This document shows positions 25,765 through 45,782 of a stretch of 64,000 nucleotides of DNA, in pieces. Position 1 is the first letter of the stretch. Each line of letters opens with the position of its first letter. A model generated the notes under the pieces. It made no database searches. It had not been told where the DNA came from and saw only the letters and a list, made by a program, of their open reading frames with translations. The stretch comes from Nitrospinota bacterium (GTDB taxonomy: Bacteria; Nitrospinota_A; UBA7883): NCBI GenBank assembly GCA_029881335.1, contig JAOUMU010000002.1, positions 1 through 64,000 on the forward strand, read 5' to 3'. Position numbers and translations under genes: made by a program.

Positions 25765-25840
25765 GCCCCCGTAGCTCAGGGGATAGAGCGCCGGATTCCT
25801 AATCCGTAGGTCGCAGGTTCAAATCCTGCCGGGGGTACCA
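25765..25840 (+). tRNA. tRNA-Arg (anticodon CCT) with encoded CCA
   Basis: Manual cloverleaf. Acceptor GCCCCCG / CGGGGGT (G1·U72). D-arm GCTC-AGGGGATA-GAGC. Anticodon arm CCGGA-TTCCTAA-TCCGT (U33, anticodon CCT, A37). T-arm GCAGG-TTCAAAT-CCTGC. Discriminator A73, then CCA. Confidence 0.8.
25795..25838 (+). repeat. attL: 44-bp core identical to 45277..45320 (anticodon loop to acceptor 3' end of tRNA-Arg)
   Basis: The exact 44/44 match ATTCCTAATCCGTAGGTCGCAGGTTCAAATCCTGCCGGGGGTAC was read directly. Confidence 0.9.
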
Positions 25841-26068
25841 TTAAATCAATGGGTTATCGGGTATAGCAAAAACCGGGTTATGGCCTAGTAAGCACCTGGT
25901 AAGCAGTACGTGGCAATTTCAAGCGTAAATTCAGATAAATTTCCATAGCCCTTTATATATCTAAACCGCCACTTTTGCCCTCCACCACGTCCATTGAAAC
26001 AATTTTTTTCCCCACCAGATCAAAAAAATTCCCGGCTCAAATATGGCCGGGAAGGGTATTTTTAAAGT

Positions 26069-26500
26069 TTAATCATCACCGTTATATCCCCAGACTTGAC
26101 GCCTTATTTGGTTCAATTCTTCCGGCGTTATTGTCCCAAGCTCAGGCTTTACCGGCTCAAGCTTTGTCGGCGCGTCCAGGCCGAGCAACTTGGCTTGACG
26201 CTCCATGGCCTTTAACATCAGACTGGCGGCCTTCCAATCCCCTTCCTTGGCTTTCTTGTAGCTTATGCCGATAATGGACTCCAGACGCAGAAGGGCGATA
26301 TCCCGCTCCATGATCGCTGTTTCATGGGTATCCGCGCGAATTGCCTCCAGCTCGCTTTTAATGTACTTGTGGACCATCACGGCGGAAACACCCAGCCGCT
26401 GGCCAATTTTCGCCAAGGTCAGCCCCTCCTTGCGAAGCTGGACCGCTTCCCTTTTCCGCTCCAGGGATATTACCTGCGTCTTACCTGTAATTTTTTTCAT
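26069..26500 (-). CDS. HTH DNA-binding protein (phage-type regulator or terminase-small-subunit-like)
   Basis: 143 aa. The LTLAKIGQRLGVSAVMVHKYIK helix-turn-helix is followed by a coiled-coil region. Confidence 0.5.
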   Translation of the reverse strand: MKKITGKTQVISLERKREAVQLRKEGLTLAKIGQRLGVSAVMVHKYIKSELEAIRADTHETAIMERDIALLRLESIIGISYKKAKEGDWKAASLMLKAMERQAKLLGLDAPTKLEPVKPELGTITPEELNQIRRQVWGYNGDD

Positions 26501-26790
26501 TTTTAACCTCTATGGTTAACCTATTATAACATATTTCATGTAGAATATGCTTAATTTGCTTAGGTTTTCTATTTGCCTTCCGTTTACCCTCGCTTAAAGT
26601 GTTCTATGGCTCCGAAAACCCGCCTGCAAGGCACGCTTCGCTCTGAAGGCCTTGAGGGCGGAACTTCTCCGCCATCTACGAACACTGCGAGGGACGAGAC
26701 GGAAACAGGTTAAATCAATATCCTTGTTAAAAATAGGTATTTAGAATATCCTTTCTTAGGGTGAGCGCTAAAGAAAGGATCGTTGCGTAA

Positions 26791-27966
26791 TTGAAAACCT
26801 TAAGAAAGGGAAAAAGAACCGGAGAGTTTGTTCTCAACGCCGTTGGTGGTGAACAGGTTCGCGCCTATCTGCCGCCACCACTGCCGCCAGAACCATCGCT
26901 CAATCTGGAAAAACTCTATGGTCTGATGGAAGACGCCAACAGGTCATTAGGACGGCTTGACGGCATCGCCTCAATCCTGCCGGACACTCCGTTATTCCTC
27001 TACATGTATGTCCGCAAGGAAGCGCTGCTTTCTTCCCAGATCGAAGGAACACAATCGTCCTTGTCTGACCTCTTGCTTTTTGAAAGCGATGAGGCTCCCG
27101 GAGCGCCGCTCGATGACGTCCAGGAAGTCTCCAATTACGTCGCCGCCATGAATTACGGGCTGGAGCGATTACGCGGCGGGTTTCCGTTATCGCTTCGGTT
27201 GATAAAAGAAATCCATGGAATCCTGCTTGCGATGGGGAGGGGGGCGACCAAGCAACCTGGTGAATTCCGGAGAAGTCAAAACTGGATCGGTGGCACACGT
27301 CCGGGCAATGCAATCTATGTTCCGCCGCCGCCCGACAAGGTGCTCGGTTGCATGGGTGAACTCGAAAAATTTATCTATGAGGAAGAGTCAAAGCTTCCAA
27401 CGCTAATCAAGGCGGCCCTGATCCATGTACAGTTTGAAAGCATTCACCCCTTCCTGGATGGTAACGGACGTTTGGGCCGGTTGCTCATCACTTTCCTTTT
27501 GTGCGCGGAAGGGGTTTTAAGCGAACCGATTCTTTATCTCAGTCTCTTTTTTAAAACGCATCGTCGCCGGTATTACGATCTTCTGCAAGACGTGCGTGAA
27601 GAAGGCGACTGGGAAGGGTGGCTGGAATTCTTTCTAACCGGCGTGAAAGAAACATCAGATCAGGCGGCGGAAGCGGCCCGCCGAATTCTTGCCGTTTTCG
27701 AGCGGGATCGGCGCAAGATCGAGGACCTTGGCCGACCAACCGCATCCGCGCTCAGAGTGCATCAATATCTGCAATCAAAACCGATTCTGTCTGTACCTGT
27801 CGCGACCAAGGCACTGGGCCTGACCGCTCCTACGGTCAGGAAATCCGTTGAGCATCTTCTGGAGCTGGGAGTCATGCGAGAGATCACCGGAAAAAAACGA
27901 GGCAAGTTATTCGTCTACGACGATTATCTCAACCTCCTCAATGAAGGAACGGAGCCGTTGCGATAA
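26791..27966 (+). CDS. Fic/DOC family protein (AMPylase-type fold) with a C-terminal winged-helix domain
   Basis: 391 aa with the canonical Fic motif HPFLDGNGRLGRLL. Its stop overlaps the SNF2 gene start (TAATG). Confidence 0.9.
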   Translation: MKTLRKGKRTGEFVLNAVGGEQVRAYLPPPLPPEPSLNLEKLYGLMEDANRSLGRLDGIASILPDTPLFLYMYVRKEALLSSQIEGTQSSLSDLLLFESDEAPGAPLDDVQEVSNYVAAMNYGLERLRGGFPLSLRLIKEIHGILLAMGRGATKQPGEFRRSQNWIGGTRPGNAIYVPPPPDKVLGCMGELEKFIYEEESKLPTLIKAALIHVQFESIHPFLDGNGRLGRLLITFLLCAEGVLSEPILYLSLFFKTHRRRYYDLLQDVREEGDWEGWLEFFLTGVKETSDQAAEAARRILAVFERDRRKIEDLGRPTASALRVHQYLQSKPILSVPVATKALGLTAPTVRKSVEHLLELGVMREITGKKRGKLFVYDDYLNLLNEGTEPLR

Positions 27967-30900
27967 TGCTACTCGATAACAAAAAGAACGGAAAGGTGGG
28001 TGACAAACTACGAACTCACTTAGCCAATGGCTCAAAGCTATCAATCATATCCGGTCTGTTTTCGATCTACGGTTTTGAATCTCTGAAAAAGGAACTGCAA
28101 AATATAGACGCTTTACGCCTTGTCTTGTCACAAAATCCAATAAACAGTAATTTGCAGGAAGCGGGAATTGCCTCCCTATCCGGAGACAGGTTTGAGCTAC
28201 GGTTCAAGAACCAGCTCAATCAGGCACAAGTTGCTAAAGAATGCGCTTCCTGGCTTAAAGAAAAAGCTGAAATACGTATAGCAACAAACCCCATGGCCAT
28301 AAGCCAAAATCTCTTTCACGTTCAAGAGGGGAATGGGGAAGCAATAGCCATTCAAGGCAGTTCCGAGTTCACCAGCACCGGTTTTGGATACACGGAAACT
28401 GACCGGTACCACATGAATACCTGCTCAACGGGCAAGGCAAGTACGATAGCAATGCTGGAGTGGTTTGAAGCCATCTGGGATGATCCATCGGCTGTTCAGG
28501 ATGCAAAGGAGCTACTTTTACGTCAGCTTTCCAACCTGACAAAGGATCATTCTCCTGAATTTATCTACTTTCTTACCCTCTACAACCTGTTTAAGGACTT
28601 CATCGAAGACATTGACGAAGACAACATTATCAAGGCCAAAACGGGATTCAAGGAAACCATCGTTTGGAAAAAGCTCTATAAATTTCAGCGCGACGGAGTC
28701 CTGGGTGCAATAGACAAAATCGAAAAATACAATGGTTGCATTATCGCAGACAGCGTGGGCTTGGGTAAAACTTTCGAGGCGTTGGCCGTTATCAAATATT
28801 ACGAGTTACGCAATGATCGCGTGCTTGTGCTATGCCCCAAAAAGCTAAGGGATAATTGGACGGTCTATACAGTAAACGACAAACGTAATCTGCTCGCCAA
28901 GGATCGGTTCAACTACGACGTTCTCAACCATACTGACCTGACCCGCCTGCAAGGCCGCTCTGGCGAAATCAATCTCGAAACCCTGAACTGGGGTAACTAC
29001 GATCTGGTTGTGATTGATGAGTCTCATAATTTCCGCAACAGCAGCTCATCAAGGGAAGGTCTTACCCGTTATTCCCGCCTGATGAATGAAATTATCCTAT
29101 CTGGCGTTAAAACCAAAGTCCTTATGCTTTCAGCCACTCCTGTTAATAGCCGAATGAACGACCTGAAGAATCAGGTCGCTTTTATTGCTGAAGGACTAGA
29201 TTTTGCCTACAGCGACTTCGGCATTGTAAGTATTGAGCAGACCTTGAAGAAAGCGCAAACCCGGTTTAATCAATGGCTCAAGCTGGACGATGAAAGCCGG
29301 TCGGTCGAAGGATTGCTTGACAGTATGAACTTCGATTACTTTAAGCTTCTGGACATTTTGACAATTGCCCGGTCGCGCAAGCACATTGAAAAATATTACG
29401 ACATAGCGGAGGTAGGCGATTTTCCCGAACGTCTAAAACCGATAAACATTAAGGAAGATATCGATAAGGGAGGGAAGTTTCCGCCCTTGGAAGAGATCAA
29501 CCGGAAGATTCGAAAGCTAAATCTCAGCGCTTATTCCCCACTTAAATATGTGCGAACAGAAAAGCGAGAGGAGTATAACCGCAAATACGATATCGAAGTA
29601 AAAGGCGGATCAATCTTTCGACAGGTTCACCGAGAACAAAGTCTGATCCACCTTATGCGAGTGAACCTGCTCAAACGCATGGAAAGCTCGATAAATTCAT
29701 TCAGCCTCACTTTGGGAAAGCTTCAGGGAGAGGTGGATCGCCTGATGGAAAAACTTGAAAACCACAGTAGCGAAGACCTCGAGGAGCTGGGGATCGAGGA
29801 TATTGAAGTCGATGAACCTGAATTTGACCCCTTCCTTATTGGCAAAAAAGTAAAGGTGCTAATCAAGGATTTGGACGAAGTTCGTTGGAAACAGGACCTT
29901 GAGGATGACCATGACAAACTGACCGAACTGCTATCAGAAGCACGAGACATCGAGGCGAAGCGCGATGCCAAGCTATACCGGTTACGCGCAATGATCGAGA
30001 ATAAATGCCAAAATCCGATCAATGACGGCAACCGCAAGATCATCGTCTTTACAGCTTTTACCGATACCGCCAATTATCTCTATGAACATCTTGCCGAGTG
30101 GGCAAAGGAGACCTTGGGCGTGTATTCGGCTAAAATCACAGGAAGCGGCACCAACAAGACTACAATGCCAGGCATGGGGAGCAACTTCGATACTCTTCTC
30201 GCTTCCTTTTCTCCAATCTCGAAGGAGCGGAGCAAAATAGACGAAGGGGCAACTGATGAAATTGACCTCCTGATCGCCACGGATTGCATATCTGAAGGGC
30301 AAAACCTTCAGGATTGCGATTATCTGATCAATTACGATATACACTGGAATCCAGTCCGCATCATTCAACGCTTTGGCCGCATAGACCGTCTTGGCTCAAA
30401 GAATAAGGTTATCCAACTCGTCAACTTCTGGCCAAACATGGAGCTGGATGAATATATCAACCTGGAAGCGCGGGTAAGCGGCCGTATGGTTCTTCTCGAT
30501 ATTTCCGCAACTGGCGAGGAAAATGTAATCGAGCAGGACACCACTGGCAAGATGAACGATCTTGAGTATCGGAGGAAACAGCTTCATCAGCTCAAGGATA
30601 CTGTCATCGATCTGGAAGATATATCGGGTGGCGTTTCAATCACCGATCTTACCCTAAACGATTTCCGGATGGACCTGTCCGCATTCATGAAGGAGCACTT
30701 GGGCGAATTGGAGCAATCACCCACCGGGCTTTATGCGGCCACGACGCTAGATTCCGAACTGCAAAAGGAAGAGCTGGAACCTGGTGTGATCTTTTGCCTG
30801 AAAAACATTGGCAAGACGGTTGCAGAGGAGGAAGGCTACGCGCTTGCTCCCTATTACATGGTCTACATCACCGACGATGGCCAGGTGAAATACACCTTCA

Positions 30901-31184
30901 CCCAGTCAAAGAGGATTCTTGACGTTCTGAAAAAGCATGGCCATGGGCAAAAACAAGCAGATGCCAAGGCCATTGAGCGCATGAACAAACGAACCAGAAA
31001 CGGCAAAGATATGAGCCATTACCGTTCGCTTTTGGAAACCGCCGTCAGTAGTATCGTAGGCAAGTCAGAAGAGAAGGGCGTAGAAAGCCTGTTCAGTCGT
31101 GGGGGAACCAACCTGACCAAGGAGAGTTTTCAGGGGATGGAAGACTTCGAGGTCATCAGCTACATGATTGTGAATACGCCATGA
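27966..31184 (+). CDS. SNF2-family helicase/ATPase with an N-terminal degenerate PLD-like domain
   Basis: 1072 aa. SNF2 motifs are ADSVGLGKTFEA (I), DLVVIDESHNFRN (II) and C-terminal QRFGRIDRLGS (VI). The N-terminal 150 aa carry an HKD-like segment HVQEGNGEAIAIQGSSEFT, with HxK degraded to HxQ. Confidence 0.85.
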   Translation: MLLDNKKNGKVGDKLRTHLANGSKLSIISGLFSIYGFESLKKELQNIDALRLVLSQNPINSNLQEAGIASLSGDRFELRFKNQLNQAQVAKECASWLKEKAEIRIATNPMAISQNLFHVQEGNGEAIAIQGSSEFTSTGFGYTETDRYHMNTCSTGKASTIAMLEWFEAIWDDPSAVQDAKELLLRQLSNLTKDHSPEFIYFLTLYNLFKDFIEDIDEDNIIKAKTGFKETIVWKKLYKFQRDGVLGAIDKIEKYNGCIIADSVGLGKTFEALAVIKYYELRNDRVLVLCPKKLRDNWTVYTVNDKRNLLAKDRFNYDVLNHTDLTRLQGRSGEINLETLNWGNYDLVVIDESHNFRNSSSSREGLTRYSRLMNEIILSGVKTKVLMLSATPVNSRMNDLKNQVAFIAEGLDFAYSDFGIVSIEQTLKKAQTRFNQWLKLDDESRSVEGLLDSMNFDYFKLLDILTIARSRKHIEKYYDIAEVGDFPERLKPINIKEDIDKGGKFPPLEEINRKIRKLNLSAYSPLKYVRTEKREEYNRKYDIEVKGGSIFRQVHREQSLIHLMRVNLLKRMESSINSFSLTLGKLQGEVDRLMEKLENHSSEDLEELGIEDIEVDEPEFDPFLIGKKVKVLIKDLDEVRWKQDLEDDHDKLTELLSEARDIEAKRDAKLYRLRAMIENKCQNPINDGNRKIIVFTAFTDTANYLYEHLAEWAKETLGVYSAKITGSGTNKTTMPGMGSNFDTLLASFSPISKERSKIDEGATDEIDLLIATDCISEGQNLQDCDYLINYDIHWNPVRIIQRFGRIDRLGSKNKVIQLVNFWPNMELDEYINLEARVSGRMVLLDISATGEENVIEQDTTGKMNDLEYRRKQLHQLKDTVIDLEDISGGVSITDLTLNDFRMDLSAFMKEHLGELEQSPTGLYAATTLDSELQKEELEPGVIFCLKNIGKTVAEEEGYALAPYYMVYITDDGQVKYTFTQSKRILDVLKKHGHGQKQADAKAIERMNKRTRNGKDMSHYRSLLETAVSSIVGKSEEKGVESLFSRGGTNLTKESFQGMEDFEVISYMIVNTP

Positions 31185-31939
31185 CCACAGCTATCACCCT
31201 CGATCAGTTCTACCAGAATATGGCCCTGCCGGAAGCATGCGCCCTTGGAAAGCGAATATTCAAAAAGCAGTTTTACGACAACGGCCAGCTAAACGCCGCC
31301 GACAAGAAGGCGTTTGTCGAGGATATAGAAAGCATCGAATGGCGTTACACGCTAAAACCCTCAACGATCAATATCCCCAAGCACGAAGACGAAACCCATG
31401 AATATCTGGAAGTGGCCATTCTTCAGGTTCTGCTTTCGGCTATGGGGAAAAGCGCACGAATCGCAATGGCCATGCAGAAAGCCATTCCTTATCCGGTTCT
31501 GATTGTCTTCGTTTACGGCGGCCAGCTTTCGCTTAACGTGGCGGAAAAGCGAATCAACCGCGCCGACAGCAACAAGATCGTTGTTGAGACCGCACACGAT
31601 AGCGGATGGATATCCTTGCAGGAACCGGAACAATGGCAGACCGATTTCTTCAATGATTTTCAAGTCACTAATTATTCCTTTCGCAACTTCTTTGACTTCT
31701 ATAAAGATATGGTGAAGCGGATCATAGCCCTGAACTGCGCCTGTCATACCGGTCAATATTCGCTAGGTACAAGCGTTGATAGGGTGGAAGCTTTGCGGCA
31801 GATGGAAAAGTTACAGCAGGAACGGAACGAGACCAGCAACTTGCTCAAAAAAGAAAAGAACCTGGGAACACAGGTTCAACTGAACACACGGATCAAACAG
31901 ATTACGGATCGCATAGAAGCGATTAAGGGCGAATTATGA
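31181..31939 (+). CDS. hypothetical protein; recalled as a DUF4391-like family member habitually encoded between SNF2 helicase and type III methyltransferase genes
   Basis: 252 aa. It overlaps the SNF2 stop by 4 bp (ATGA) and ends 5 bp before mod. The family assignment is by recollection only. Confidence 0.5.
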   Translation: MTTAITLDQFYQNMALPEACALGKRIFKKQFYDNGQLNAADKKAFVEDIESIEWRYTLKPSTINIPKHEDETHEYLEVAILQVLLSAMGKSARIAMAMQKAIPYPVLIVFVYGGQLSLNVAEKRINRADSNKIVVETAHDSGWISLQEPEQWQTDFFNDFQVTNYSFRNFFDFYKDMVKRIIALNCACHTGQYSLGTSVDRVEALRQMEKLQQERNETSNLLKKEKNLGTQVQLNTRIKQITDRIEAIKGEL

Positions 31940-31943
31940 GGGG

Positions 31944-33821
31944 ATGCGCATGGAAAAAATGACAAAGCAGGACGGCAAAAGCCTCGATATGGTGAAGGGG
32001 AATCTAGAAGCTTTAAAAACCATCTTCCCGGAAGCTTTTACAGAGGATGGCGTTAACTTTGAAACACTGCGGCAGTTGCTTGGCGACGAGGTTGATGATG
32101 GCGAGGAGAAATACGGTCTCAACTGGCATGGCAAGAAAAAGGCCCGCCAGATCGCATTGACTCCTTCTCTGGGAACTCTGCGCCCATGCCCGGAAGAGAG
32201 TGTCGATTGGAACACCACACAGAACCTCTTTATCGAAGGGGACAATCTGGAAGTCCTGAAGCTCTTGCAGAAAAGCTACGCCAACAAGGTCAAGATGATC
32301 TATATCGACCCGCCCTATAACACAGGGAAGGAGTTCATCTATCCCGACAAGTTCCAGGACAATCTTGATACATATCTCAAATATACCGGTCAGAAAGATG
32401 ATGAGGGGTTCAAGGTCAGCTCCAACACGGAAAGCTCAGGCAGGTACCACACCAACTGGTTGAATATGATATATCCCCGCTTAAAGCTAGCGAGGAATCT
32501 TCTTCGGGATGATGGGGTCATTTTTATCTCAATAGATGATAATGAATCTACAAACCTAAGGATAATTTGTAATGATATTTTTGGAGAAGAAAATTTCATT
32601 GGGTCATTAATATGGAAACGCCGAGTGTCATCAGCAATGGCTGATAATAACGTTTCATCTGATCACGACTATGTAGTTTGCTATCAAAAAGGCAATCTAA
32701 AAGGGTTTGCTGGATTTGAAAAGGATTTCAAAAGATATTCCAACCCAGATAATGATAAAAGAGGTCCTTGGATTTCAGACAATTTGACTGTAGGTATGAA
32801 TTCGTCAATGCGCCCTAATCAAGCGTATGATTTAGTCGATCCAAAAACAGGTAGTACATACCCATATAATCCTAATCGTGTTTGGGCTTTTATTCCAGAA
32901 ACGATGAATAGAATGATTGCTGAAGGCAGGATTATTTTCCCGGACGATCCTGCAAAGCGTCCAATGCAAAAACGATTTCAGAATGAGCTTAATAATACAC
33001 ACAACCCTTTTTCTACTTTGATGCTGGATAGAGTAGGGTTAAATACAGAGGCTACCCGGACTATCCAAGATGTAATGGAAAGGAATGTTTTCGAGTATTC
33101 AAAGCCTGTTTCACTGCTTAAAACATTAGTTCCGCAAATATGTGTAAGCAAAAACGATATAGTTTTAGACTTTTTTGCAGGTTCGTGTGTAACTGCTCAT
33201 GCAGTTCTGGACTTAAACAAAGATGGAGATGATAATCTCAAATTTGTCATGGTTCAGCTTCCAGAACCATGTGATGAAAAGTCAGAAGCATTCAAAGGAG
33301 GATATAAAACCATAGCAGACATTGGTAAAGAACGTATCCGCCGGGTAGCCGCTAAAATCAAGGAGGAAACTCCGTTATATCAAGGCGATCTTGGATTCAA
33401 GGTCTTCAAGCTCGATAGCAGTAACATCCAAACATGGAATCCGGACAGGGATGATCTGGAACAGACGCTTCTGGATCATGCGGATCATCTTGTGGAAGGG
33501 CGGAGCGAAGAGGATGTTCTCTATGAATTGCTCCTGAAGCGTGGTGTTGATCTGACCGTACCCATTGAGCAAAAGGAAGTATCCGGCAAGGCTGTTTATA
33601 GCATCGGTTATGGAGTGTTGTTCACTTGCCTGGACACCTCCATCAGCCGGGATGATGTGGAAAGCCTCGCCCAGGGGATCGTCGCATGGCATGAAGAGCT
33701 GAAGCCGGAGAGCGACACACAAGTGGTCTTTCGGGACAGCGCGTTCGCCGATGACATTGCAAAAACCAACATGACAGCCATTCTTGAACAGAACGGCATC
33801 GCTCATGTGCGTAGTCTGTGA
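31944..33821 (+). CDS. mod: type III restriction-modification Mod subunit (beta-class N6-adenine DNA methyltransferase)
   Basis: 625 aa. Motif IV is IYIDPPYNTG. Motif I is FFAGSCVTAHAV, in the C-terminal part (beta-class circular permutation). The middle region is the presumptive variable target-recognition domain. Confidence 0.88.
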   Translation: MRMEKMTKQDGKSLDMVKGNLEALKTIFPEAFTEDGVNFETLRQLLGDEVDDGEEKYGLNWHGKKKARQIALTPSLGTLRPCPEESVDWNTTQNLFIEGDNLEVLKLLQKSYANKVKMIYIDPPYNTGKEFIYPDKFQDNLDTYLKYTGQKDDEGFKVSSNTESSGRYHTNWLNMIYPRLKLARNLLRDDGVIFISIDDNESTNLRIICNDIFGEENFIGSLIWKRRVSSAMADNNVSSDHDYVVCYQKGNLKGFAGFEKDFKRYSNPDNDKRGPWISDNLTVGMNSSMRPNQAYDLVDPKTGSTYPYNPNRVWAFIPETMNRMIAEGRIIFPDDPAKRPMQKRFQNELNNTHNPFSTLMLDRVGLNTEATRTIQDVMERNVFEYSKPVSLLKTLVPQICVSKNDIVLDFFAGSCVTAHAVLDLNKDGDDNLKFVMVQLPEPCDEKSEAFKGGYKTIADIGKERIRRVAAKIKEETPLYQGDLGFKVFKLDSSNIQTWNPDRDDLEQTLLDHADHLVEGRSEEDVLYELLLKRGVDLTVPIEQKEVSGKAVYSIGYGVLFTCLDTSISRDDVESLAQGIVAWHEELKPESDTQVVFRDSAFADDIAKTNMTAILEQNGIAHVRSL

Positions 33822-36800
33822 GCGGGGATTACTACATGAAATTACATTTTGAAGACAATCTGGAATATCAGCATGCGGCTATTGAGGCCGTTGCCGACCT
33901 GTTCAGAGGGCAGGATATTTGCCGGACGGAATTTACCGTTACTTACCAATCCGACGATGGCGCACAAGGCAGGCTTGGCATTGCAGAAAGTGAACTAGGT
34001 ATCGGGAACCGTCTTCAGCTCCTGGATGATGAAATACTGAAGAATTTGCACGATATCCAGCTCCGTAATGGATTGCCCCCGTCGGACTCCCTTGCCAATG
34101 GCGACTTCACCGTCGAGATGGAGACCGGAACCGGCAAGACCTATGTTTATCTGCGTACCATATTCGAGCTGAACAAGCGTTATGGCTTCACCAAATTCGT
34201 TATAGTCGTCCCTTCCGTGGCCATCAAGGAGGGAACCTACAAGACACTCCAGATCACGAGGGAGCATTTTGAAAACCTCTTTCCGATAGCCAAAGGCTAC
34301 GAGTATTTCCTCTACGACTCCGGCAAGCTTGGGCAGGTGCGCAATTTTGCAACCAGTCCTAATATCCAGATCATGGTTGTGACCGTCGGCGCGATCAATA
34401 AAAAGGACGTGAACAACCTCTATAAGGATAGTGAAAAAACCGGTGGCGAAAAACCGATTTATCTTGTCCGGGCAACCCATCCAATCATCATTGTTGACGA
34501 ACCGCAGAGTGTGGATGGTGGCATGAAAGGTCAGGGAAAAAAAGCTCTTGAAGCCATGAACCCGCTCTGCACATTACGTTATTCAGCAACCCATGTAGAT
34601 AAACATCACATGCTCTATCGCCTAGATGCCGTGGACGCATATGACCGTGAGCTGGTCAAACAGATCGAAGTGGCCGCTCTGGAAGTGGAAGGTGGCCATA
34701 ACAAGCCTTATGTGAAGCTGGTCTCAACGCACAACAAAAAAGGCTCGATCACGGCCAAGGTGGAGCTGGATGTTCAACGAGGAAAGAACATCCGCCGCGA
34801 CATAGTGACCGTGGAGGATGGAGACGATCTGGAGCAGGAAACTGGCCGTGCAATCTATGAGAATTTCCGAATAGGAACAATCACCTGTGGGAAGGGTAAT
34901 CAGTCCTTGGATATCAGCATGCCTGGCGGTGAATACACCATGCAGCCGGGTGAGGAGGTTGGCGGCGTTAATCCAGACGATCTAAAGAGGCTGATGATCC
35001 GCCGCACGATCAAGGAACACCTGGACAAGGAAATACGCTTTGCGGCGCAGAAGCGGGAAGTGAAAGTGCTTAGCCTGTTCTTCGTTGATAGCGTCGAATA
35101 TTACCGAAGCTACGATGAAGACGGGAATGCGGTGAAGGGAAAATACGCCCTGATGTTTGAAGAGGAATACCGCAAGCTGGCGAAACAGGCGGACTACCAC
35201 ACGCTGTTTGAGAAGATCGATCTCGATACCGATGCCAGTGATGTTCATAATGGTTATTTCTCAATCGACAAAAAGGGCGGATGGACAGAAACAGCGGAGA
35301 ACAATCAATCCAACAGAGACAGTGCTGAACGCGCCTATAACCTGATTATGAAGGATAAGGAAAAGCTTCTCAGCTTTGACTCTAAGCTCAAATTCATATT
35401 CTCCCATTCAGCCCTGAAAGAAGGGTGGGATAATCCGAACGTCTTTCAAATATGCGCTCTGCGTGACATGGGATCAGAACGCGAACGGCGGCAAACCCTT
35501 GGGCGCGGTTTGCGGTTATGCGTCAACCAAGAAGGCCTTCGGCTCCGTGGTTTTGACATTAATACGCTTACCGTAATCGCAACCGAGAGCTATGAGCAAT
35601 TTGCAGAGAACCTCCAGAAGGAAATAGAGGAGGATACCGGAATCCGGTTTGGCATCGTAGAAAAGCATCAGTTCGCCACACTGCCCGTGACTGCCGAAGA
35701 TGGTACGACGCAACCTCTGGGGGTGGAGAAATCAGAAAAAGTCTGGGATTTCCTGAAGGTGAATGACTATCTGGATAACCGAGGGAAAGTTCAGGACAGC
35801 TTGAAAACAGCGTTAAAAGAAAACACTCTGAAGATACCAGAGGAATTTAAGGAGCAGGAAGCAGGGATCAAAGGTATTCTGCGCAAACTTGCCGGGAAGC
35901 TGGATATCAAGAATGCGGATGAGCGTGTTACCGTCCGGACACGAGAGGCGGTACTGGAGAGTGAAGAGTTTAAGGCTCTATGGGATCGCATCAAGCACAA
36001 GACGACTTATCGTGTCGAGTTTGACAATGCGAAACTTATTGAGGATTGCGGAAAGGCCATTTTGGCCGGGCCACCAATTACCAAAACCCGAGCGCAATTC
36101 CGTATGGCGGATATTGCTATCGGGAAGGGTGGGGTGGAGGCTAAAGAAACAGCTACGTCGGGATTTACATCGATCAACGAAACCGATATTGAACTTCCGG
36201 ATTTACTGACGGATTTGCAGGACAAGACGAGCCTGAAGCGGCGGAGCCTGGTCGAGATTCTCACCGGTTGCCGTCGCTTGAACGACTTTATGAAGAACCC
36301 GCAGGAATTCATCGAACTAGCGACGGAGGCAATCAACAGGATAAAACGCCTTGCGCTTGTTGACGGCATTCGATATCGGCGTGTCGGTGACGATCACTAC
36401 TACGCCCAGGAGCTTTTTCAGCAGGAAGAGTTGACCGGATATCTCAAGAATACTCTGGAAACGCAAAAATCTGTTTATGAGCGTGTCGTTTACGATTCCG
36501 CCGGTGTTGAAAAACGCTTTGTCGAAGATTTGGAAGGGAACGAGGCGGTCAAAGTCTACGCCAAGCTCCCCGGCTGGTTCAAAGTGCCGACGCCGCTTGG
36601 CACATACAACCCTGACTGGGCGGTTCTGGTGGAAATCGACGGGCAGGAAAAGCTCTATTTCGTTGTCGAGACCAAGGGCAGCAATTGGTGGGACGATCTG
36701 CGCCACAAGGAAGGGGCCAAGATCAAATGCGGTGAAAAACACTTCGCCGTGCTGGCCGAAGGCGACAACCCGGCCAAGTACATTAAAGCCACCTGCGTCG

Positions 36801-36823
36801 ATGACATGATGAAGAATGGTTGA
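33818..36823 (+). CDS. res: type III restriction enzyme Res subunit (SF2 helicase plus C-terminal PD-(D/E)xK nuclease)
   Basis: 1001 aa. Walker A is METGTGKTY. DEAD-like motif II is IIVDEPQS. The C-terminal nuclease motif is YNPDW...VVETKGS. It overlaps mod by 4 bp. Confidence 0.88.
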   Translation: MSGDYYMKLHFEDNLEYQHAAIEAVADLFRGQDICRTEFTVTYQSDDGAQGRLGIAESELGIGNRLQLLDDEILKNLHDIQLRNGLPPSDSLANGDFTVEMETGTGKTYVYLRTIFELNKRYGFTKFVIVVPSVAIKEGTYKTLQITREHFENLFPIAKGYEYFLYDSGKLGQVRNFATSPNIQIMVVTVGAINKKDVNNLYKDSEKTGGEKPIYLVRATHPIIIVDEPQSVDGGMKGQGKKALEAMNPLCTLRYSATHVDKHHMLYRLDAVDAYDRELVKQIEVAALEVEGGHNKPYVKLVSTHNKKGSITAKVELDVQRGKNIRRDIVTVEDGDDLEQETGRAIYENFRIGTITCGKGNQSLDISMPGGEYTMQPGEEVGGVNPDDLKRLMIRRTIKEHLDKEIRFAAQKREVKVLSLFFVDSVEYYRSYDEDGNAVKGKYALMFEEEYRKLAKQADYHTLFEKIDLDTDASDVHNGYFSIDKKGGWTETAENNQSNRDSAERAYNLIMKDKEKLLSFDSKLKFIFSHSALKEGWDNPNVFQICALRDMGSERERRQTLGRGLRLCVNQEGLRLRGFDINTLTVIATESYEQFAENLQKEIEEDTGIRFGIVEKHQFATLPVTAEDGTTQPLGVEKSEKVWDFLKVNDYLDNRGKVQDSLKTALKENTLKIPEEFKEQEAGIKGILRKLAGKLDIKNADERVTVRTREAVLESEEFKALWDRIKHKTTYRVEFDNAKLIEDCGKAILAGPPITKTRAQFRMADIAIGKGGVEAKETATSGFTSINETDIELPDLLTDLQDKTSLKRRSLVEILTGCRRLNDFMKNPQEFIELATEAINRIKRLALVDGIRYRRVGDDHYYAQELFQQEELTGYLKNTLETQKSVYERVVYDSAGVEKRFVEDLEGNEAVKVYAKLPGWFKVPTPLGTYNPDWAVLVEIDGQEKLYFVVETKGSNWWDDLRHKEGAKIKCGEKHFAVLAEGDNPAKYIKATCVDDMMKNG

Positions 36824-36835
36824 GGGATATTAGAA

Positions 36836-37051
36836 ATGATGGAAGATAATAAGCCACTCAATGTGCAAGTCACCTCCAAAGAAACACCCACTCTTTTAAA
36901 TACTGACCGCCTTCGGTTGCACTTGAAAGAAGATGGATTGGCAGTGGCTTTACTTGACGTATGGCTTGATGATCCAAAACTCGATAATCAGGCGCGTATG
37001 CTTCAAATTATCGATAGTTATCATAAAAAAAAGCAAGTGAACGATGGCTAG
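36836..37051 (+). CDS. small hypothetical protein (71 aa), translationally coupled to the downstream ABC ATPase
   Basis: It starts 13 bp after the res stop. Its stop overlaps the ATPase start (ATGGCTAG). Confidence 0.5.
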   Translation: MMEDNKPLNVQVTSKETPTLLNTDRLRLHLKEDGLAVALLDVWLDDPKLDNQARMLQIIDSYHKKKQVNDG

Positions 37052-39566
37052 GCCCCAACTACGAAAAATTGAAATCCAGGGATTCCGTAGCTTTGGCTCT
37101 GGGAAACAATCATTTGAATTATCCCAAACTGTATCGGTCCTTTGGGGTGGGAATAGCCAAGGTAAAACGAGCCTTGCCGAAGCTATTGAATTCCTTTTTA
37201 GTGGCCAAATCGCCCGTCGCGAGTTGCTAGCCAGTACGAAGGACGAGTTTTCAGACTCACTCCGAAACGCTCATATCCCTAATACACTCCCTGTTTTTGT
37301 ATCCGCTGAAATAGTATGTGCTGACGGAAAAATAAGGCAATTAAAGCGCGTATTGAGCGAGGATTACAAGAAAGGAAACCATGGATGTATCAGCACACTG
37401 GAAATTGATGGACTTCTTTGCCTAGATGGCGATATTGAAACAAAATTGGGTATTAAGCTCTTCCAAGCACCCCTAAGCTCACCAGTGCTGGCCCAACACA
37501 CTCTTGGATATATATTTTCCGCTGGCCCAAATGATCGCTCCACCTATTTTAGGGCTGTGCTGGATACACAGGATTTAGAAGATTTCCGTGCGGCTATTGC
37601 CGCCCTATCAGAGTATATTCCCACACCAGTCCTAAAAGAAAATGGACTCTTGCATGCTATCGAGATCATACCAGAGCTGGGTAATACAAGCAGTGCCATA
37701 CGGAAATCCAAATCGCTGTCCAATTTAGAGAATAGTTTACTTGATGCAACAACTGCTCTCCTAACCAGCCTGGGGCTTAATCCACAAGATCAGCTTGCGG
37801 CACAGGCTATACAGATCGAGGAGGAGTTAATAAAAAGACGTGCAAAGTCATTTCCCCTCGATCTGTTTACCAAATCCTCCTTCGTGCCATGGGATAAGAA
37901 TTCAGGTAGCTTGGATCAACACATTAAAATATTTTACGAGGAACGCGCTAAAATTGACGTGGAAACCCGAAGACTTGTCGATTTATTCAAGATGGCTTTG
38001 CTATTGCCTGAAGCCAGTAATGAGCCTGAAGTAGCAAACTGTCCATTATGTGGCACGATTGACGCTTTAACGCCAAAGCGCATCCATGCGATACGCGAAC
38101 AGGTTAAAGATACAGAAATATACCAAGCGGCCGAGAAAGATATCTGTCAAACTCTACAAGCAATATCAACAAGGTTGTCTTCCTTGACTACAGCTCTGGA
38201 TTCCTCTTTGCCAAAATTTATTTTGGAACAACCACAGGCCAGACGTGCAAAAGGATTTACCGTAACCCGCATGCGTGACCTCGTGAATGATGCAGCCATG
38301 GTTACAAATTGGCTTGTTCCTACACGCCAAATTATCCGTGCTTCAGTAACCTTTAGAAAATCAATTATCGATGCACAAACAACTATCAATACTGTCATAG
38401 ACAGTCTAGATATATGGAACGATAAAACATCGATAACCCGTGCACTCGATAAAGTTAAATCAGCTCAAGATGTATATGCACAAAGCATCGATAATTATAC
38501 GCAAGTGGCAGAGTTGCTCGTCGGGCCACTGAAGAGTGCTGTTGACCAAAGCACGAACACTAAAGGCTGGGAAGAACTGGCCAAGCTGGCACACAGTCCT
38601 ACCGCCTTGTGGAATGCACTTGTAGAAACGGCCACGTATGAGCAGAAGAAGAAAGACCTTAACAGGGCACTCAAGGAAATTGACGCTGGCAATGGCAGGG
38701 TTGCGGATGATAAATTCGCCGATATGAGCACAGAAGTTAAAAAATGGTGGGATTATTTGCGACCTGATGAAACAACATTCTTTGATGCTGTGCAACGGCG
38801 TAGCACAAAAGCACGGCGAAATATTGACATTAAAGTCGGCCTTTCTGCTACTGAAGATCGTAGCAATCCGGCATTCCGAAATGCTGTTGCCGTATTTAGT
38901 CAATCGCAATTGCATTGCCTTGGTCTTTCGATGTTCCTAGCCCGAGCTGTGCAAGCTAAAACGGGATTCATTGTAATGGATGATCCTGTTTTGACTAGCG
39001 ATGACGATTTTAGACCTAATTTTGCTTCAACTGTCATCGAGGGTCTGTTGAATGAAGGGGTGCAATCCATAATTCTGACACAAGATCATTCGAGCTGGAA
39101 AGATATTGGACATCGTTGGGTACACCGCGATGTTGCCCAATTTCAAATTGTGTGCAACAACCCACTTTTGGGAACTGAAATCAGAAATCAGAATGATGGT
39201 CTTGCTACTATGATTGCAAGGGCACAGCCATTTGTTAAATCACACGACCTTGACCAACAAAAAACAGGTGCTACCCAAATACGATTATCTATCGAACGTT
39301 TCGGTAAAGAAATTCTTGTACGGAAAAGTCGCCTTGACGGTAACCAGATAGCTTCCATAACTGACTATGACGGAAAGAACTTCGGTGAATTCAGTAATTC
39401 TGTTTATGCCCTTCTCACAAAAGACCCTGCTCATCCAGGCAAGCTGAAGGCTGCGCATTCATACGTTACGCCAGGGGCACACGACGATACTCCTCCATCG
39501 TCAGGCAAGCTTTCAACGGCACTTGGAGACCTGAAGAAAATGAAGCGCGACTATCTAGACTCATAA
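37044..39566 (+). CDS. Rad50/SbcC-like ABC ATPase with a coiled-coil insertion and a CxxC zinc-hook motif; candidate RloC-like anticodon nuclease or other defence ATPase
   Basis: 840 aa. Walker A is GGNSQGKTS near the N-terminus. A long helical middle region contains CPLCG near residue 330. A signature-like QLHCLGLS and Walker B FIVMDDP are followed by an extra C-terminal domain of about 170 aa containing an R-x3-E...H pattern (IRLSIER ... DPAH). Confidence 0.6.
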   Translation: MARPQLRKIEIQGFRSFGSGKQSFELSQTVSVLWGGNSQGKTSLAEAIEFLFSGQIARRELLASTKDEFSDSLRNAHIPNTLPVFVSAEIVCADGKIRQLKRVLSEDYKKGNHGCISTLEIDGLLCLDGDIETKLGIKLFQAPLSSPVLAQHTLGYIFSAGPNDRSTYFRAVLDTQDLEDFRAAIAALSEYIPTPVLKENGLLHAIEIIPELGNTSSAIRKSKSLSNLENSLLDATTALLTSLGLNPQDQLAAQAIQIEEELIKRRAKSFPLDLFTKSSFVPWDKNSGSLDQHIKIFYEERAKIDVETRRLVDLFKMALLLPEASNEPEVANCPLCGTIDALTPKRIHAIREQVKDTEIYQAAEKDICQTLQAISTRLSSLTTALDSSLPKFILEQPQARRAKGFTVTRMRDLVNDAAMVTNWLVPTRQIIRASVTFRKSIIDAQTTINTVIDSLDIWNDKTSITRALDKVKSAQDVYAQSIDNYTQVAELLVGPLKSAVDQSTNTKGWEELAKLAHSPTALWNALVETATYEQKKKDLNRALKEIDAGNGRVADDKFADMSTEVKKWWDYLRPDETTFFDAVQRRSTKARRNIDIKVGLSATEDRSNPAFRNAVAVFSQSQLHCLGLSMFLARAVQAKTGFIVMDDPVLTSDDDFRPNFASTVIEGLLNEGVQSIILTQDHSSWKDIGHRWVHRDVAQFQIVCNNPLLGTEIRNQNDGLATMIARAQPFVKSHDLDQQKTGATQIRLSIERFGKEILVRKSRLDGNQIASITDYDGKNFGEFSNSVYALLTKDPAHPGKLKAAHSYVTPGAHDDTPPSSGKLSTALGDLKKMKRDYLDS

Positions 39567-40020
39567 AGACGGCAACCGCTAAGGGTAAGTCCCCTTTTCA
39601 AACATGATAAAATACATTATCACGTTTAAAAGAAAGAAACATTGTCAAGGTCTGAAGACTCAATAGCAATATCATGCAGGACAATGATATCCTTGATCCG
39701 GCCATGTTTTCTCCGCCCACCTGGCTTTGATCACACCTCTCCTAATGAAGTTTTTTTCCATTATGCTCAAAATATCGCATCATGGTTAACTGCGCCGCGC
39801 AAAGGTATAGCTAGAAATTGGAAATGCTTTTCTGTCGTCAATGTGAGAAAGCCATATGTAAATCTGGAATTTCCCATATACCTGTCATTGAATGGATTAC
39901 ATTGCCAGACGGATAATTACATGACCTATGATTCATATACAAAACATACAAAACCCTAATCCAAAATGAAATCGCCAGAGTTTTGTATGTTTTGTATACG
40001 TGTATACGCAAAGGCCTTTC

Positions 40021-40047
40021 CAAAAAGATAGGGGGCGCGAGCCCCCC
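40021..40047 (-). terminator. rho-independent terminator for the minus-strand primase operon
   Basis: A GC hairpin GGGGGC-GCGA-GCCCCC (40031..40047) is followed, on the minus strand, by TATCTTTTTG. It lies 10 bp downstream of the primase stop. Confidence 0.6.
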
Positions 40048-40057
40048 ATCGTTTGGC

Positions 40058-42652
<2,595 letters not shown>

Positions 42653-43597: not shown

Positions 43598-43811
43598 CGC
43601 GCCCTCCTTCCGGCGCCCTGAAATAAGATATTGACCGGCGGGGCTGGTTCAGGAAAGCCAGCTTTTCGGGGATCAACCTAGCCGGTCAAAGTGTAGCAAA
43701 AATAGCATGAATAGCAATTGCAGGCCGCCAAAGCGAATTATCGCGCCAAGGCTAGCGGATGCCGTTAAGTCAATCTATTGGCAGTAATGGCAGTGGCTTT
43801 ACCTTAGGTAT

Positions 43812-45074
43812 TTAATCAATCCCGCCCGCTTTCTTGAATGGCAGAACGTCCGCGCCACCTTTTCGCCCGGCCCGTGTAAGGATTGCGTCCGTTATCCTTT
43901 GCATGGGCGCCCTTAGCCTTTCCGCGTCGTGAACTATATAGCCCTCCGTCACGTCTCCGGCCTGCTTGTGGTTCAATAATCGCTTCAAAGCGTATCCGCT
44001 TATGTCCAGGCTTTCCGCCACCGTGGCGAATGTCCGCCGCAAGTCATGGACAGTAAACTTCACCCCAGATATGGCTGTTATCTTCTTCATTTGGCGCCGG
44101 GGCTCCATAAGGTGGCCGGTTTTGCTTCTATCTGGGAATACATATTCACTTGATAGGTTCGCACCACGGCGCCGGTCCAGCATTTCATAAACCATATCGC
44201 TCATGGGCAAGGTTAGCGGCTGGCTGTTCTTTGTGTCCGTTATGGTGAAGGTCTTTTCTGCCATATCAACATCGGCCCATTTCAAATGGGCCGCCTCTTG
44301 CCGTCTTAATCCCGTAAAGAGAATCAATTCCAGATAATCCGGGACAACTTCCGTTGTCTTTGTGCTTTCCATCAATTCGCTTCTTAGCGCGTCCAGAGCG
44401 TCAAGAAACACGCCAAGGCTTGAATCCTTAATGTAGGTCCGTTTCCTGTCCACTTTATACCAAGCTCGTGTTTCGGAAAGACGCTTGACGGGATTTACCT
44501 GCAATAGCGGCTGGCCATCGTTTGTTTCGTATTTTGCCATCGCGAAATTGAAAACCGCCCGCAATACCCTCATGGCCTGATTCCCCTGGGCGGGGCCGTG
44601 ATCCTTGGCGATATCAGCATGGCGTTGTTGAATCATGTTCTTAGTAATTCCCCTTACCTGCTTCCCCAGCCAATCGCCAAACCGCTTTTCCACTTGGTAC
44701 CTATAATCAAGAACTGTCCGGGGCTTTAATTGTTTCCGCGCCATCATATATTCATCAAACGCTTCCCTTAACGTCACCTGGGCCGCTCTGGCCGCTTGCT
44801 TTTCCGCCATGGGGTCCACGCCCTGGGTCATTTCCGAAAGCCGTTGTAATGCCATTGAGCGGGCTTGGTCCGGAGTTAATTTCCCATGCTTCCCTAAGGT
44901 AACCCTTACTGAGCGGCCTGATACGCGTGATTGAACAACATACACCTTCCCGGAAGGAACAACCTTTACACCGAAGCCTTGCAAAGCCTTATCCCAATAA
45001 AAGACCGATTTCCCCGGCTCTGTAACGGGGGGAAGACCGTCAACCGCCGATTTTGTGATCTTCATTTTCGCCAT
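43812..45074 (-). CDS. int: tyrosine-type site-specific integrase (P4-like, with an N-terminal DUF4102 arm-binding domain)
   Basis: 420 aa. The N-terminus is GLPPVTEPGKSVFYWDKALQGFGVKVVPSGKVYVVQSRV (Arm-DNA-bind type). The C-terminal catalytic region carries the R...HDLRRTF...Y pattern. Confidence 0.9.
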   Translation of the reverse strand: MAKMKITKSAVDGLPPVTEPGKSVFYWDKALQGFGVKVVPSGKVYVVQSRVSGRSVRVTLGKHGKLTPDQARSMALQRLSEMTQGVDPMAEKQAARAAQVTLREAFDEYMMARKQLKPRTVLDYRYQVEKRFGDWLGKQVRGITKNMIQQRHADIAKDHGPAQGNQAMRVLRAVFNFAMAKYETNDGQPLLQVNPVKRLSETRAWYKVDRKRTYIKDSSLGVFLDALDALRSELMESTKTTEVVPDYLELILFTGLRRQEAAHLKWADVDMAEKTFTITDTKNSQPLTLPMSDMVYEMLDRRRGANLSSEYVFPDRSKTGHLMEPRRQMKKITAISGVKFTVHDLRRTFATVAESLDISGYALKRLLNHKQAGDVTEGYIVHDAERLRAPMQRITDAILTRAGRKGGADVLPFKKAGGID

Positions 45075-45276: not shown

Positions 45277-45320
45277 AATTCCTAATCCGTAGGTCGCAGG
45301 TTCAAATCCTGCCGGGGGTA
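45277..45320 (+). repeat. attR: duplicated 3' 44 bp of tRNA-Arg
   Basis: Exact match to 25795..25838. It is followed by TTTTT instead of CCA. Confidence 0.9.
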
Positions 45321-45782
45321 CTTTTTCTACTGTATACCAAAAACGCCGCTTCTCCTCTCCGCCAATTCTGAAGACGGGGAACACGTAAGCGTTCCTCCAT
45401 GACAGAATCCACTTTCCACGGCGTCCACACCTCCTGCTGGTTAAACAGAAAGTGTAACGCATGACTCCGGTACGATATGTCACCTATGTCTCGGGTAGCT
45501 CAGAGACTCTTTACTCACACAAACGGGATGGTGCGGTCCTCCCCGGCTTATCCGATTTTCCAAGCCGCTGTTGTTCGCGTCCACCCCGATGGCGCAGACT
45601 ACGTGCAGGGCCCTCAAGAAAGAGCGCAACATCCTTTAAACTCCATGATAAATATGGTAGAATCCGCGCATTGCATCTCTGATGCTAGGTGGGGCGAATG
45701 GTTATCCAGGTCAAATGGTATTTCATTGCCGCGAGATTGGCGGCGATCCTCGTAGCCTGTGTGTATAATTATGGATGAAGTC

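Follow-up and report, generated by a model that had tools for sequence, protein, structure and literature searches.

We analysed a 64,000-nucleotide (nt) stretch of DNA from a Nitrospinota bacterium (hereafter the window: positions 1 to 64,000, forward strand, of contig JAOUMU010000002.1, assembly GCA_029881335.1), and within it an array of seven consecutive open reading frames (ORFs) on the + strand, numbered g1 to g7 from 5′ to 3′. They encode a Fic protein (g1), an SNF2-family ATPase (g2), a DUF4391 protein (g3), the Mod and Res subunits of a type III restriction-modification (R-M) enzyme (g4 and g5), a small protein (g6) and a zinc-hook ATPase (g7). The best explanation, to which we assign a probability of about 0.7, is that the array consists of three separately mobile anti-phage modules, namely g1, the four-gene cassette g2 to g5 and the pair g6-g7, stacked head-to-tail on a tRNA-Arg island and most likely expressed from a single promoter region ahead of the Fic gene. 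As judged from related loci, the four-gene core is the functional unit, with an independently mobile module on either side.

An earlier description of this DNA made without database searches (the sequence-only reading) had listed the seven co-directional ORFs, and all are present at the positions it gave, as verified with an ORF listing and by direct reading. Its domain calls (Fic, SNF2, DUF4391, mod, res, small ORF, ATPase) were confirmed by Pfam and PADLOC searches, and the array proteins are 100% identical to database entries annotated from a Nitrospinota metagenome-assembled genome (MAG). Its proposal of a single coupled seven-gene defence super-operon is only partly upheld: co-expression is likely, but only g2 to g5 are co-located in relatives, and g1 and g6-g7 are found without the cassette.

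Conservation of the four-gene cassette and of its flanks

Relatives were collected with a DUF4391 alignment search, which gave 21 genome loci and 10 metagenome loci (the latter mostly short), and with a tblastn search of plasmids, which gave 56 records, six of them inspected. Every sufficiently long locus, about 40 from bacteria and one archaeon, displays the order SNF2-DUF4391(-like)-mod-res, and this order is maintained down to 25-28% DUF4391 identity. The loci come from Nitrospinota, Alpha-, Beta- and Gammaproteobacteria, Desulfobulbia, Bacteroidota, Bacillota, Campylobacterota, Chloroflexota and the archaeon Methanomethylovorans. The SNF2 protein is 53-92% identical across cassette loci, and its ATGA overlap with the DUF4391 gene is retained in 12 of 13 orthologous loci. 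The constant presence of SNF2 and DUF4391 beside mod-res, in all sufficiently long loci of this family, suggests that both may be required in addition to the Mod-Res pair.

The sequence-only reading had made its case depend on whether homologues of the array genes are co-located elsewhere. This holds for g2 to g5, which keep the same order in relatives, but not for g1, g6 and g7, which never accompany the cassette: tblastn detected no homologue of these three within 10 kb in the 31 genome and metagenome loci, and a scan for the Fic motif over 37 cassette loci, plasmids included, found no Fic gene heading a cassette, the single match lying on the opposite strand ~2.8 kb upstream.

The borders of the cassette are visible in the nearest relative, a Nitrospinaceae MAG locus (L001, 87% DNA identity). 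Homology by blastn covers only 27959-36819, opening 7 nt ahead of the SNF2 ATG and ending 4 nt short of the res stop; its only breaks are a replaced Mod recognition segment and an extra L001 gene between mod and res. In the replaced segment, 32600-33242 of the window, DNA similarity to L001 is lost (blastn break 32599-33243), although the two sequences are otherwise 87-88% identical, and the GC content drops to 0.378, which suggests a swap of the specificity domain. The extra gene (L001 12693-13565) encodes a 290-amino-acid (aa) Bro-N protein of the PADLOC PDC-S13 family and overlaps res by ATGA; it represents an embedded defence candidate inside the cassette. Codon composition also changes along the array, with GC at third codon positions of 0.54-0.59 in SNF2, DUF4391 and res and 0.39-0.40 in g6 and g7 (0.40 in g6).

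Both flanks of the cassette vary. Directly before SNF2, where the window has the Fic gene, six relatives (L002, L004, L005, L006, L008 and L016) carry an HTH_17 gene with a gap of 0 or −1 nt, using the same TAATG device, three (L003, L009 and L012) carry an RHH gene overlapping by 11-14 nt, and one carries AbiEii. The small DNA-binding genes may be regulators of the cassette, by analogy with MtsR of the MANTIS system considered below. After res, at 11-54 nt and on the same strand, relatives harbour a gene of the PADLOC family HEC-05, PDC-S19, PDC-S46 (twice), PDC-S06 (twice), PDC-S14 or PDC-S68. Because unrelated neighbours make the same tight junctions with the cassette, we take the overlapping junctions as packing rather than as the mark of a shared complex. 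More generally, a shared complex should not be read from overlapping stop and start codons in a defence island, as unrelated inserts gain ATGA or TAATG junctions; and the post-res position is a predictable slot that could be mined for new defence genes.

Some loci depart from the common form. On a Listeria monocytogenes plasmid (L052, 11184-11741) the DUF4391 position is occupied by a 185-aa protein keeping only the core 'IE.I.W...L.P.TIN.P' (hhalign E 5e-4), a shortened variant of the cassette. An alphaproteobacterial locus (L009, 10785-17669) has two tandem mod genes; its res is split into three frame-shifted matches, and the copy is probably decaying or phase-variable. On Synechocystis pSYSX (L051, 7959-15392) a remote g2 homologue (29% identity) stands with a VapC toxin-antitoxin pair and an 1100-aa DNA methyltransferase, in a locus that looks BREX-related, with embedded genes.

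Gene junctions and island context

The junctions within the array are tight (coordinates in Table 1). The Fic TAA and the SNF2 ATG have one base in common (TAATG, 27964-27968; −1 nt), SNF2 and DUF4391 overlap by 4 nt (ATGA), the longest mod ORF opens after a gap of 4 nt, res overlaps mod by 4 nt (GTGA) if it starts at GTG 33818, g6 follows res after 12 nt and overlaps g7 by 8 nt (ATGGCTAG). As read from the letters, these are the junctions of the sequence-only reading, from which we differ in that mod and res probably start a few codons downstream. The res start is probably ATG 33836, because res starts at the equivalent Met in 11 of 13 orthologous loci, with a gap after mod of 12-16 nt, and because DNA homology with L001 resumes at 33836 (blastn); the true mod-res spacing is then probably a gap of 14 nt and not a 4-nt overlap. 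For mod, ATG 31950 corresponds to the residue from which the orthologues align, and it is also where an independent gene call made on a second assembly opens the gene; the DUF4391-mod gap is then probably 10 nt rather than 4. With either set of starts the genes stay closely packed, and such spacing is common in this genome: gaps of 15 nt or less are found in 16 of 32 other same-strand neighbour pairs of the window (crude ORF calling). Six tight junctions in a row are notable (~0.5^6), yet they are of an ordinary operon-like kind.

Table 1. Genes of the array and features of the island that carries it (coordinates in the window)
Feature	Coordinates	Strand	Description
g1	26791-27966	+	391 aa, TTG start; SoFic-type class II Fic AMPylase (predicted); module 1
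g2	27966-31184	+	1072 aa; SNF2-family ATPase, degenerate PLD-like N-terminal domain; cassette gene 1; module 2
g3	31181-31939	+	252 aa; DUF4391 protein; cassette gene 2
g4	31944-33821	+	625 aa; type III Mod methyltransferase; probable start ATG 31950
g5	33818-36823 (longest ORF); likelier 33836-36823	+	1001 aa from GTG start (longest ORF); type III Res helicase-endonuclease
g6	36836-37051	+	71 aa; conserved ATPase partner gene; module 3
g7	37044-39566	+	840 aa; Rad50/SMC-like zinc-hook ABC ATPase, all-alpha C-terminal domain; RloC-like; module 3
tRNA-Arg (CCT)	25765-25840	+	ARAGORN; Rfam tRNA 68.9 bits
Left att repeat	25795-25838		3′ part of tRNA-Arg
Right att repeat	45278-45321	+	copy of tRNA-Arg 3′ end; 44 nt, 100% identical direct repeat
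HTH protein	26069-26500	- (divergent)	143 aa; weak Pfam HTH_23, Sigma70_r4; PHROG 645 4.8e-23
Toprim+DUF3987 primase/helicase	40058-42148	-	Pfam DUF3987 1.5e-95, Toprim; PHROG DNA helicase/primase families
DnaG-type zinc-ribbon protein	42145-42429	-	Pfam Zn_ribbon_DnaG
HTH_17 excisionase/AlpA-type regulator	42419-42652	-	Pfam HTH_17 1.6e-7; PHROG 66 excisionase
int-alpA RNA motif	43616-43688	-	Rfam RF02996, 37.7 bits (gathering score 35.8); downstream of integrase gene
P4-type tyrosine integrase	43812-45074	-	Pfam Phage_integrase, Arm-DNA-bind_3, Phage_int_SAM_1; PHROG 1 1.1e-52

The whole array is carried as cargo by a 19.5-kb island that has inserted at tRNA-Arg and spans 19,483 bp from one repeat to the other, as established by the att repeats, by the integrase, primase and excisionase genes and by the lower GC content, 0.477 inside the island versus 0.563 and 0.543 in its flanks. 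The int-alpA RNA motif occupies the interval between the integrase and the neighbouring island gene. Two copies of a 24-nt sequence (direct repeat, 88% identity) are also observed, one inside g6 (36939-36962) and one just upstream of the integrase start (43788-43811); this is probably a chance match.

Predicted functions, expression and alternative explanations

The Fic protein matches Pfam Fic_N (3e-29) and Fic (2e-20), with an HTH-like C-terminal region, and PADLOC SoFic (1.4e-123) over residues 22-384. Its score against the NCBIfam SoFic equivalog is 154 bits for a cut-off of 550 bits; it is therefore not a close orthologue of the Shewanella protein. The two motifs that define class II Fic proteins (PMC12249575) are both present: the active-site motif HPFLDGNGRLGR at 219 (definition HxFx(D/E)GNGRxxR) and the N-terminal inhibitory motif SSQIEG at 81 (definition (S/T)xxxE(G/N)). 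Homologues measure 390-392 aa at 100% coverage, and the source record likewise has 391 aa. Homologues of 80-86% identity lie on plasmids or integrative and conjugative elements (ICEs) in four unrelated contexts without the cassette: on a plasmid-like contig, 87 nt ahead of the gene for a 1285-aa R-M enzyme of the MmeI type (L038 6001-11117, 86% identity), adjoining a second Fic gene on a plasmid, adjoining a relaxase on an ICE, and at a contig end of the MAG that also contains L001. The first of these is another Fic-before-R-M arrangement, with an R-M type different from that of the window. SoFic is reported as a single-protein system (PMC12249575), and these four cassette-free neighbourhoods mark g1 as a gene predicted to act alone.

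In the cassette, g2 matches Pfam SNF2-rel_dom and Helicase_C and, over its full length, the PADLOC family C3a139 'HKD+Snf2' (7.7e-134). It has intact helicase motifs GLGKT, DESH and QRFGRIDR; of the motif HxKxxxxD...GSxN there is a degenerate version (HVQ....E...GSSEF, with K, D and N lost), whose His, at position 118, varies among orthologues. The g3 product matches Pfam DUF4391 (2.2e-68), a family of 977 clusters at 50% identity (E<=1e-10), and its AlphaFold2 (AF2) model (pLDDT 80.7) consists of an alpha/beta N-domain and a helical hairpin. One family member, P0502 (1419 aa), has DUF4391 fused C-terminally to an RNase_H_2-like nuclease and an SF1 helicase (AAA_11/AAA_12), a helicase class different from SNF2; the fusion is a hint that DUF4391 works with translocases. 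We also considered whether DUF4391 divergence tracks Mod specificity and discarded the idea: the pairwise identities correlate unremarkably (Spearman 0.61 with Mod, 0.75-0.79 with SNF2 and Res).

Mod matches Pfam N6_N4_Mtase (3.7e-33) and, full length, PADLOC MTase_III (5.5e-226), with DPPY at residue 122. Res matches Pfam ResIII and RE_endonuc (2.8e-35) and, full length, PADLOC REase_III (1257 bits); with the NCBIfam equivalog for type III endonucleases it reaches 384 bits, the cut-off being 564. The Res motifs GTGKT, DEPQ, SAT and the C-terminal PD...ETK are conserved in 17 orthologues. By its motifs, the Mod-Res pair thus carries all that a working type III enzyme displays, and intact catalytic motifs are likewise present in Fic, SNF2 and g7.

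The small protein g6 has no family match in Pfam, PADLOC or PHROG. Small ORFs homologous to it (tblastn 2e-6 to 5e-12) overlap the ATPase start in L022-L027 and L043, and L044 has a positional equivalent. Homologues of g7 (42-70% identity) were inspected in four contexts, in Bradyrhizobium, Sphingomonas, Sinorhizobium and a MAG; the cassette is absent from all four, and in all of them an ORF of 65-90 aa, recognisably g6-homologous in most, overlaps the ATPase start. ArdC-type anti-restriction genes (ArdcN + MPTase-PolyVal) occur near two of the g7 homologues (L022 5449-6417 and L044 10987-11886). The type III res genes found in these two contexts do not belong to the same cassette (43% identity in L044, no match in L022).

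The ATPase g7 itself is of the SMC/Rad50 ABC type. Its AF2 model (pLDDT 83.8) is Rad50-like: the ABC head is split by a long helical insert that bears CxxC at its apex, and the C-domain is all-alpha. In an alignment of 20 homologues CPLCG is invariant, as are R747 and E751 of the C-domain arrangement R747-x3-E751-x45-H797, while H797 is kept in 19 of 20 (consensus DPSHPGK); the family has an additional invariant HDD motif. RloC was defined by a length of 658-897 aa, a Rad50-like CX2C zinc hook and Arg-X3-Glu-X36-52-His, often with Ser before the His (PMC2610378), and g7 fits this description in size, split-head zinc hook and C-terminal triad. It can be viewed as a divergent RloC-like family with a constant small partner gene.

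These assignments suggest how the three modules would operate. In the first, g1 would be an auto-inhibited class II Fic AMPylase, a kind reported as a single-gene abortive-infection toxin. In the second, Mod would methylate host sites through its swappable recognition domain and Res, combining an SF2 ATPase with a PD-ExK nuclease, would cut unmethylated DNA. The PLD-degenerate SNF2 ATPase and its coupled DUF4391 partner would form an accessory motor/adaptor pair, a role we propose because the PLD motif of g2 is dead, the nuclease resides in Res and no DUF499 protein is present. By analogy with MtsD and MtsB of MANTIS, the pair could help to load or activate Mod-Res, or act as a second ATP-dependent checkpoint. 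In the third, the C-domain of g7, with its RloC/PrrC-type Arg-x3-Glu...His, may be a latent RNase, anticodon-nuclease-like, serving as a back-up.

Several points weigh against this picture of three modules. The PLD-like nature of the g2 N-domain is drawn from the PADLOC label and the motif remnants, and a profile of 17 orthologues matched nothing among PDB sequences; DUF4391 gave no informative PDB structural match, and the roles of both proteins are proposed by analogy. For g7, the PADLOC hidden Markov model of PrrC gave no match, including for a P-loop-less fragment, Pfam has no match over residues 653-840, and hhalign with the RloC-like PDC-S06 protein aligns only residues 626-714, the Walker B lobe, with no C-domain homology; motifs and architecture are what point to RloC, and the RNase role is a lead. 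The case for co-transcription is drawn from the gene spacing and the missing boundary signals. Finally, the independence of the modules is read from their non-conservation, which is compatible with local cross-talk. PrrC, for instance, is kept silent by the R-M enzyme to which it is linked. Three of ~19 cassettes (those of the window, L008 and L013) have an RloC-like ATPase in the post-res slot, and neighbourhoods of Fic/Doc, R-M and RloC-like genes have been proposed to act together (PMC3710099).

A more far-reaching view, tentative and of rather low probability, is that SNF2-DUF4391-Mod-Res is a distinct and ancient four-component R-M class, a type III/MANTIS hybrid in which methylation or restriction requires the PLD-dead, MtsD-like motor and DUF4391. 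The cassette ends would then be docking slots for co-transcribed back-up effectors, in the window the Fic toxin and the RloC-like pair as a putative RNase, possibly kept latent by the R-M complex.

Also of rather low probability is a layered system after the PrrC-EcoprrI paradigm, in which R-M is the first line and the RloC-like ATPase, perhaps also Fic, is silenced by or senses the R-M enzyme and fires when a phage inactivates restriction. The neighbourhood class has been published as a DNA/RNA/protein defence (PMC3710099), the ATPases following res in L008, L013 and the window are zinc-hook ABC proteins of the RloC/PDC-S06 kind, and the 12-nt spacing of g5 and g6 would force co-expression. 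Two g7-homologue contexts (L022, L044) hold ArdC together with a type III res within 7 kb, a linkage with ArdC having been noted for RloC (PMC2610378), and the Fic homologue 87 nt upstream of the MmeI-type enzyme fits as well. However, the specific families are not conserved together, no cassette locus examined has a g1 or g7 homologue, g6+g7 stand without any nearby R-M gene in Bradyrhizobium and Sphingomonas, and the post-res slot is filled by many unrelated genes. RloC is moreover reported as rarely linked to R-M and self-regulated (PMC3458546, PMC3710099).

Consensus scans of 26000-40500 gave 16 promoter-like matches for a shuffled expectation of 17.6 and 15 terminator-like matches for 15.5, none of either kind at a module boundary. 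At g1/g2 (1-nt overlap) and g5/g6 (12 nt) there is no space for a promoter or a terminator. The ~290-nt region between the divergent HTH gene and g1 probably holds the array promoter, and co-transcription is likely, read-through being the simplest expectation from the spacing. The part of the sequence-only reading that took tight coupling to imply co-expression is thus reasonable; the stoichiometric function it added fails in the comparison of co-location. It is improbable that, on the contrary, each module is driven by a promoter inside the preceding coding sequence, the overlaps being accidents of insertion. The separate origin of the modules, the own upstream regions of SNF2 and g6 in other genomes and the insensitivity of consensus promoter scans for a Nitrospinota host would speak for such a situation; but besides the lack of terminator space, no + strand promoter-like match falls near 27900 or 36800, and relatives repeatedly have a translationally coupled gene directly before SNF2. 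Because such coupled genes recur, SNF2 appears normally to be expressed with whatever lies upstream.

One obligate seven-protein machine of fixed stoichiometry, for which six consecutive junctions of at most 14 nt (three or four of them overlapping), a single orientation and the lack of boundary terminators could be invoked, is very improbable, since only g2 to g5 co-occur in relatives, L001 homology ends precisely at the cassette borders, g6 and g7 differ in codon composition, unrelated inserts in relatives form the same ATGA/TAATG junctions, and g1 and the g6+g7 pair each occur alone elsewhere.

Comparison with known systems

Three systems with an SNF2-type or SMC-like component were considered and set aside. 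Hma consists of HmaA (Snf2 with a C-terminal nuclease), HmaB (a DUF1156 methyltransferase) and HmaC (a DUF499 ATPase) (PMC11232893); the match of g2 to HmaA is confined to the helicase C-lobe (1.3e-25), and HmaB and HmaC have no equivalents here. DISARM unites DrmA, DrmB (DUF1998) and DrmC with DrmD/DrmMI; g2 resembles DrmD models in the helicase C-lobe alone (2e-40, far under the NCBIfam cut-off), and DrmA, DrmB and DrmC are absent. Lamassu has the SMC-like ATPase LmuB together with an LmuA effector and LmuC; g7 shows only a weak similarity to LmuB (1.6e-18), and the neighbours give no LmuA or LmuC match.

The island resembles P4-like satellite hotspots and Hma-embedded candidates in that defence genes lie in or next to a helicase/methylase operon on an integrase-bearing element, with embedded genes of the PADLOC HEC and PDC kinds; it differs from P4-like satellites in having no recognisable P4 capsid-hijacking genes.

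The flanking modules each recall a described family. Like SoFic, g1 combines Fic_N, Fic and a C-terminal HTH-like region with the inhibitory and HPFxxGNGRxxR motifs, but there is no space downstream for an AS1-like antitoxin gene, as SNF2 starts at the Fic stop. Like RloC/PrrC (PMC2610378, PMC3458546, PMC3710099), g7 has 840 aa, a split head, an apical CxxC, R-x3-E-x45-(S)H and ArdC near its homologues. It differs in that profile searches reveal no similarity to the nuclease (HEPN) domain of PrrC/RloC, in carrying the extra HDD motif and in the constant upstream partner gene g6, which is not described for RloC.

As to the combination, the sequence-only reading had regarded a Fic gene heading an R-M operon as non-standard. 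At the level of gene classes the pattern was, however, already described in 2013: Anantharaman et al. reported Fic/Doc toxins, R-M and RloC-like ABC-HEPN genes in mobile neighbourhoods and proposed a three-level DNA/RNA/protein defence (PMC3710099). The window offers an example of this pattern, with a toxin of the Fic/Doc superfamily, R-M genes and an ABC ATPase of the RloC-like kind. The differences are that its R-M part is the SNF2-DUF4391 cassette, that the HEPN nature of the g7 C-domain is putative and that these particular families were not found together elsewhere.

The cassette itself shares with the type III R-M enzymes EcoP15I and EcoP1I a beta-class N6-adenine Mod with DPPY, a Res with SF2 and PD...ETK nuclease motifs, and the order mod then res. 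Canonical systems need these two genes only, whereas here mod-res is always preceded by SNF2 and DUF4391. In open-access papers and preprints we found no experimental or comparative description of SNF2-DUF4391-Mod-Res, and the literature on DUF4391 (PF14335/IPR025503) amounted to one statistical mention and an apparent typographical use. The four-gene cassette appears uncharacterised. It occurs in bacteria and archaea, on plasmids and islands, and its DUF4391 family comprises ~1000 clusters at 50% identity.

The closest parallel for the accessory genes is MANTIS, also known as Gao_RL or the type-2 BREX-related system (bioRxiv 10.64898/2026.09.23.753747; PMC12839542). This methylation-based system comprises a PLD+SF2/Snf2 effector (MtsD), a small activator without structural relatives (MtsB), an adenine methyltransferase, an AAA+ loader and often an Arc/CopG repressor (bioRxiv 10.64898/2026.09.23.753747; PMC12839542). 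Among the seven proteins, Pfam and PADLOC detect no DUF499 AAA+ ATPase (MtsA, of the ORC/Cdc6 clade) and no DUF3780 (MtsB), the small protein here being DUF4391. A type III Mod serves as methyltransferase, the nuclease belongs to a separate Res protein, and the PLD motif of g2 is degenerate where MtsD has an active HKD/PLD nuclease. On the side of likeness, g2 matches the PADLOC model labelled 'HKD+Snf2' over its full length, its His118 is close in position to the catalytic H122 of MtsD, and RHH or HTH genes precede SNF2 in 9 cassette relatives. Through its resemblance to MANTIS, a system dissected only recently, the cassette offers concrete roles for SNF2 and DUF4391 that can be put to the test.

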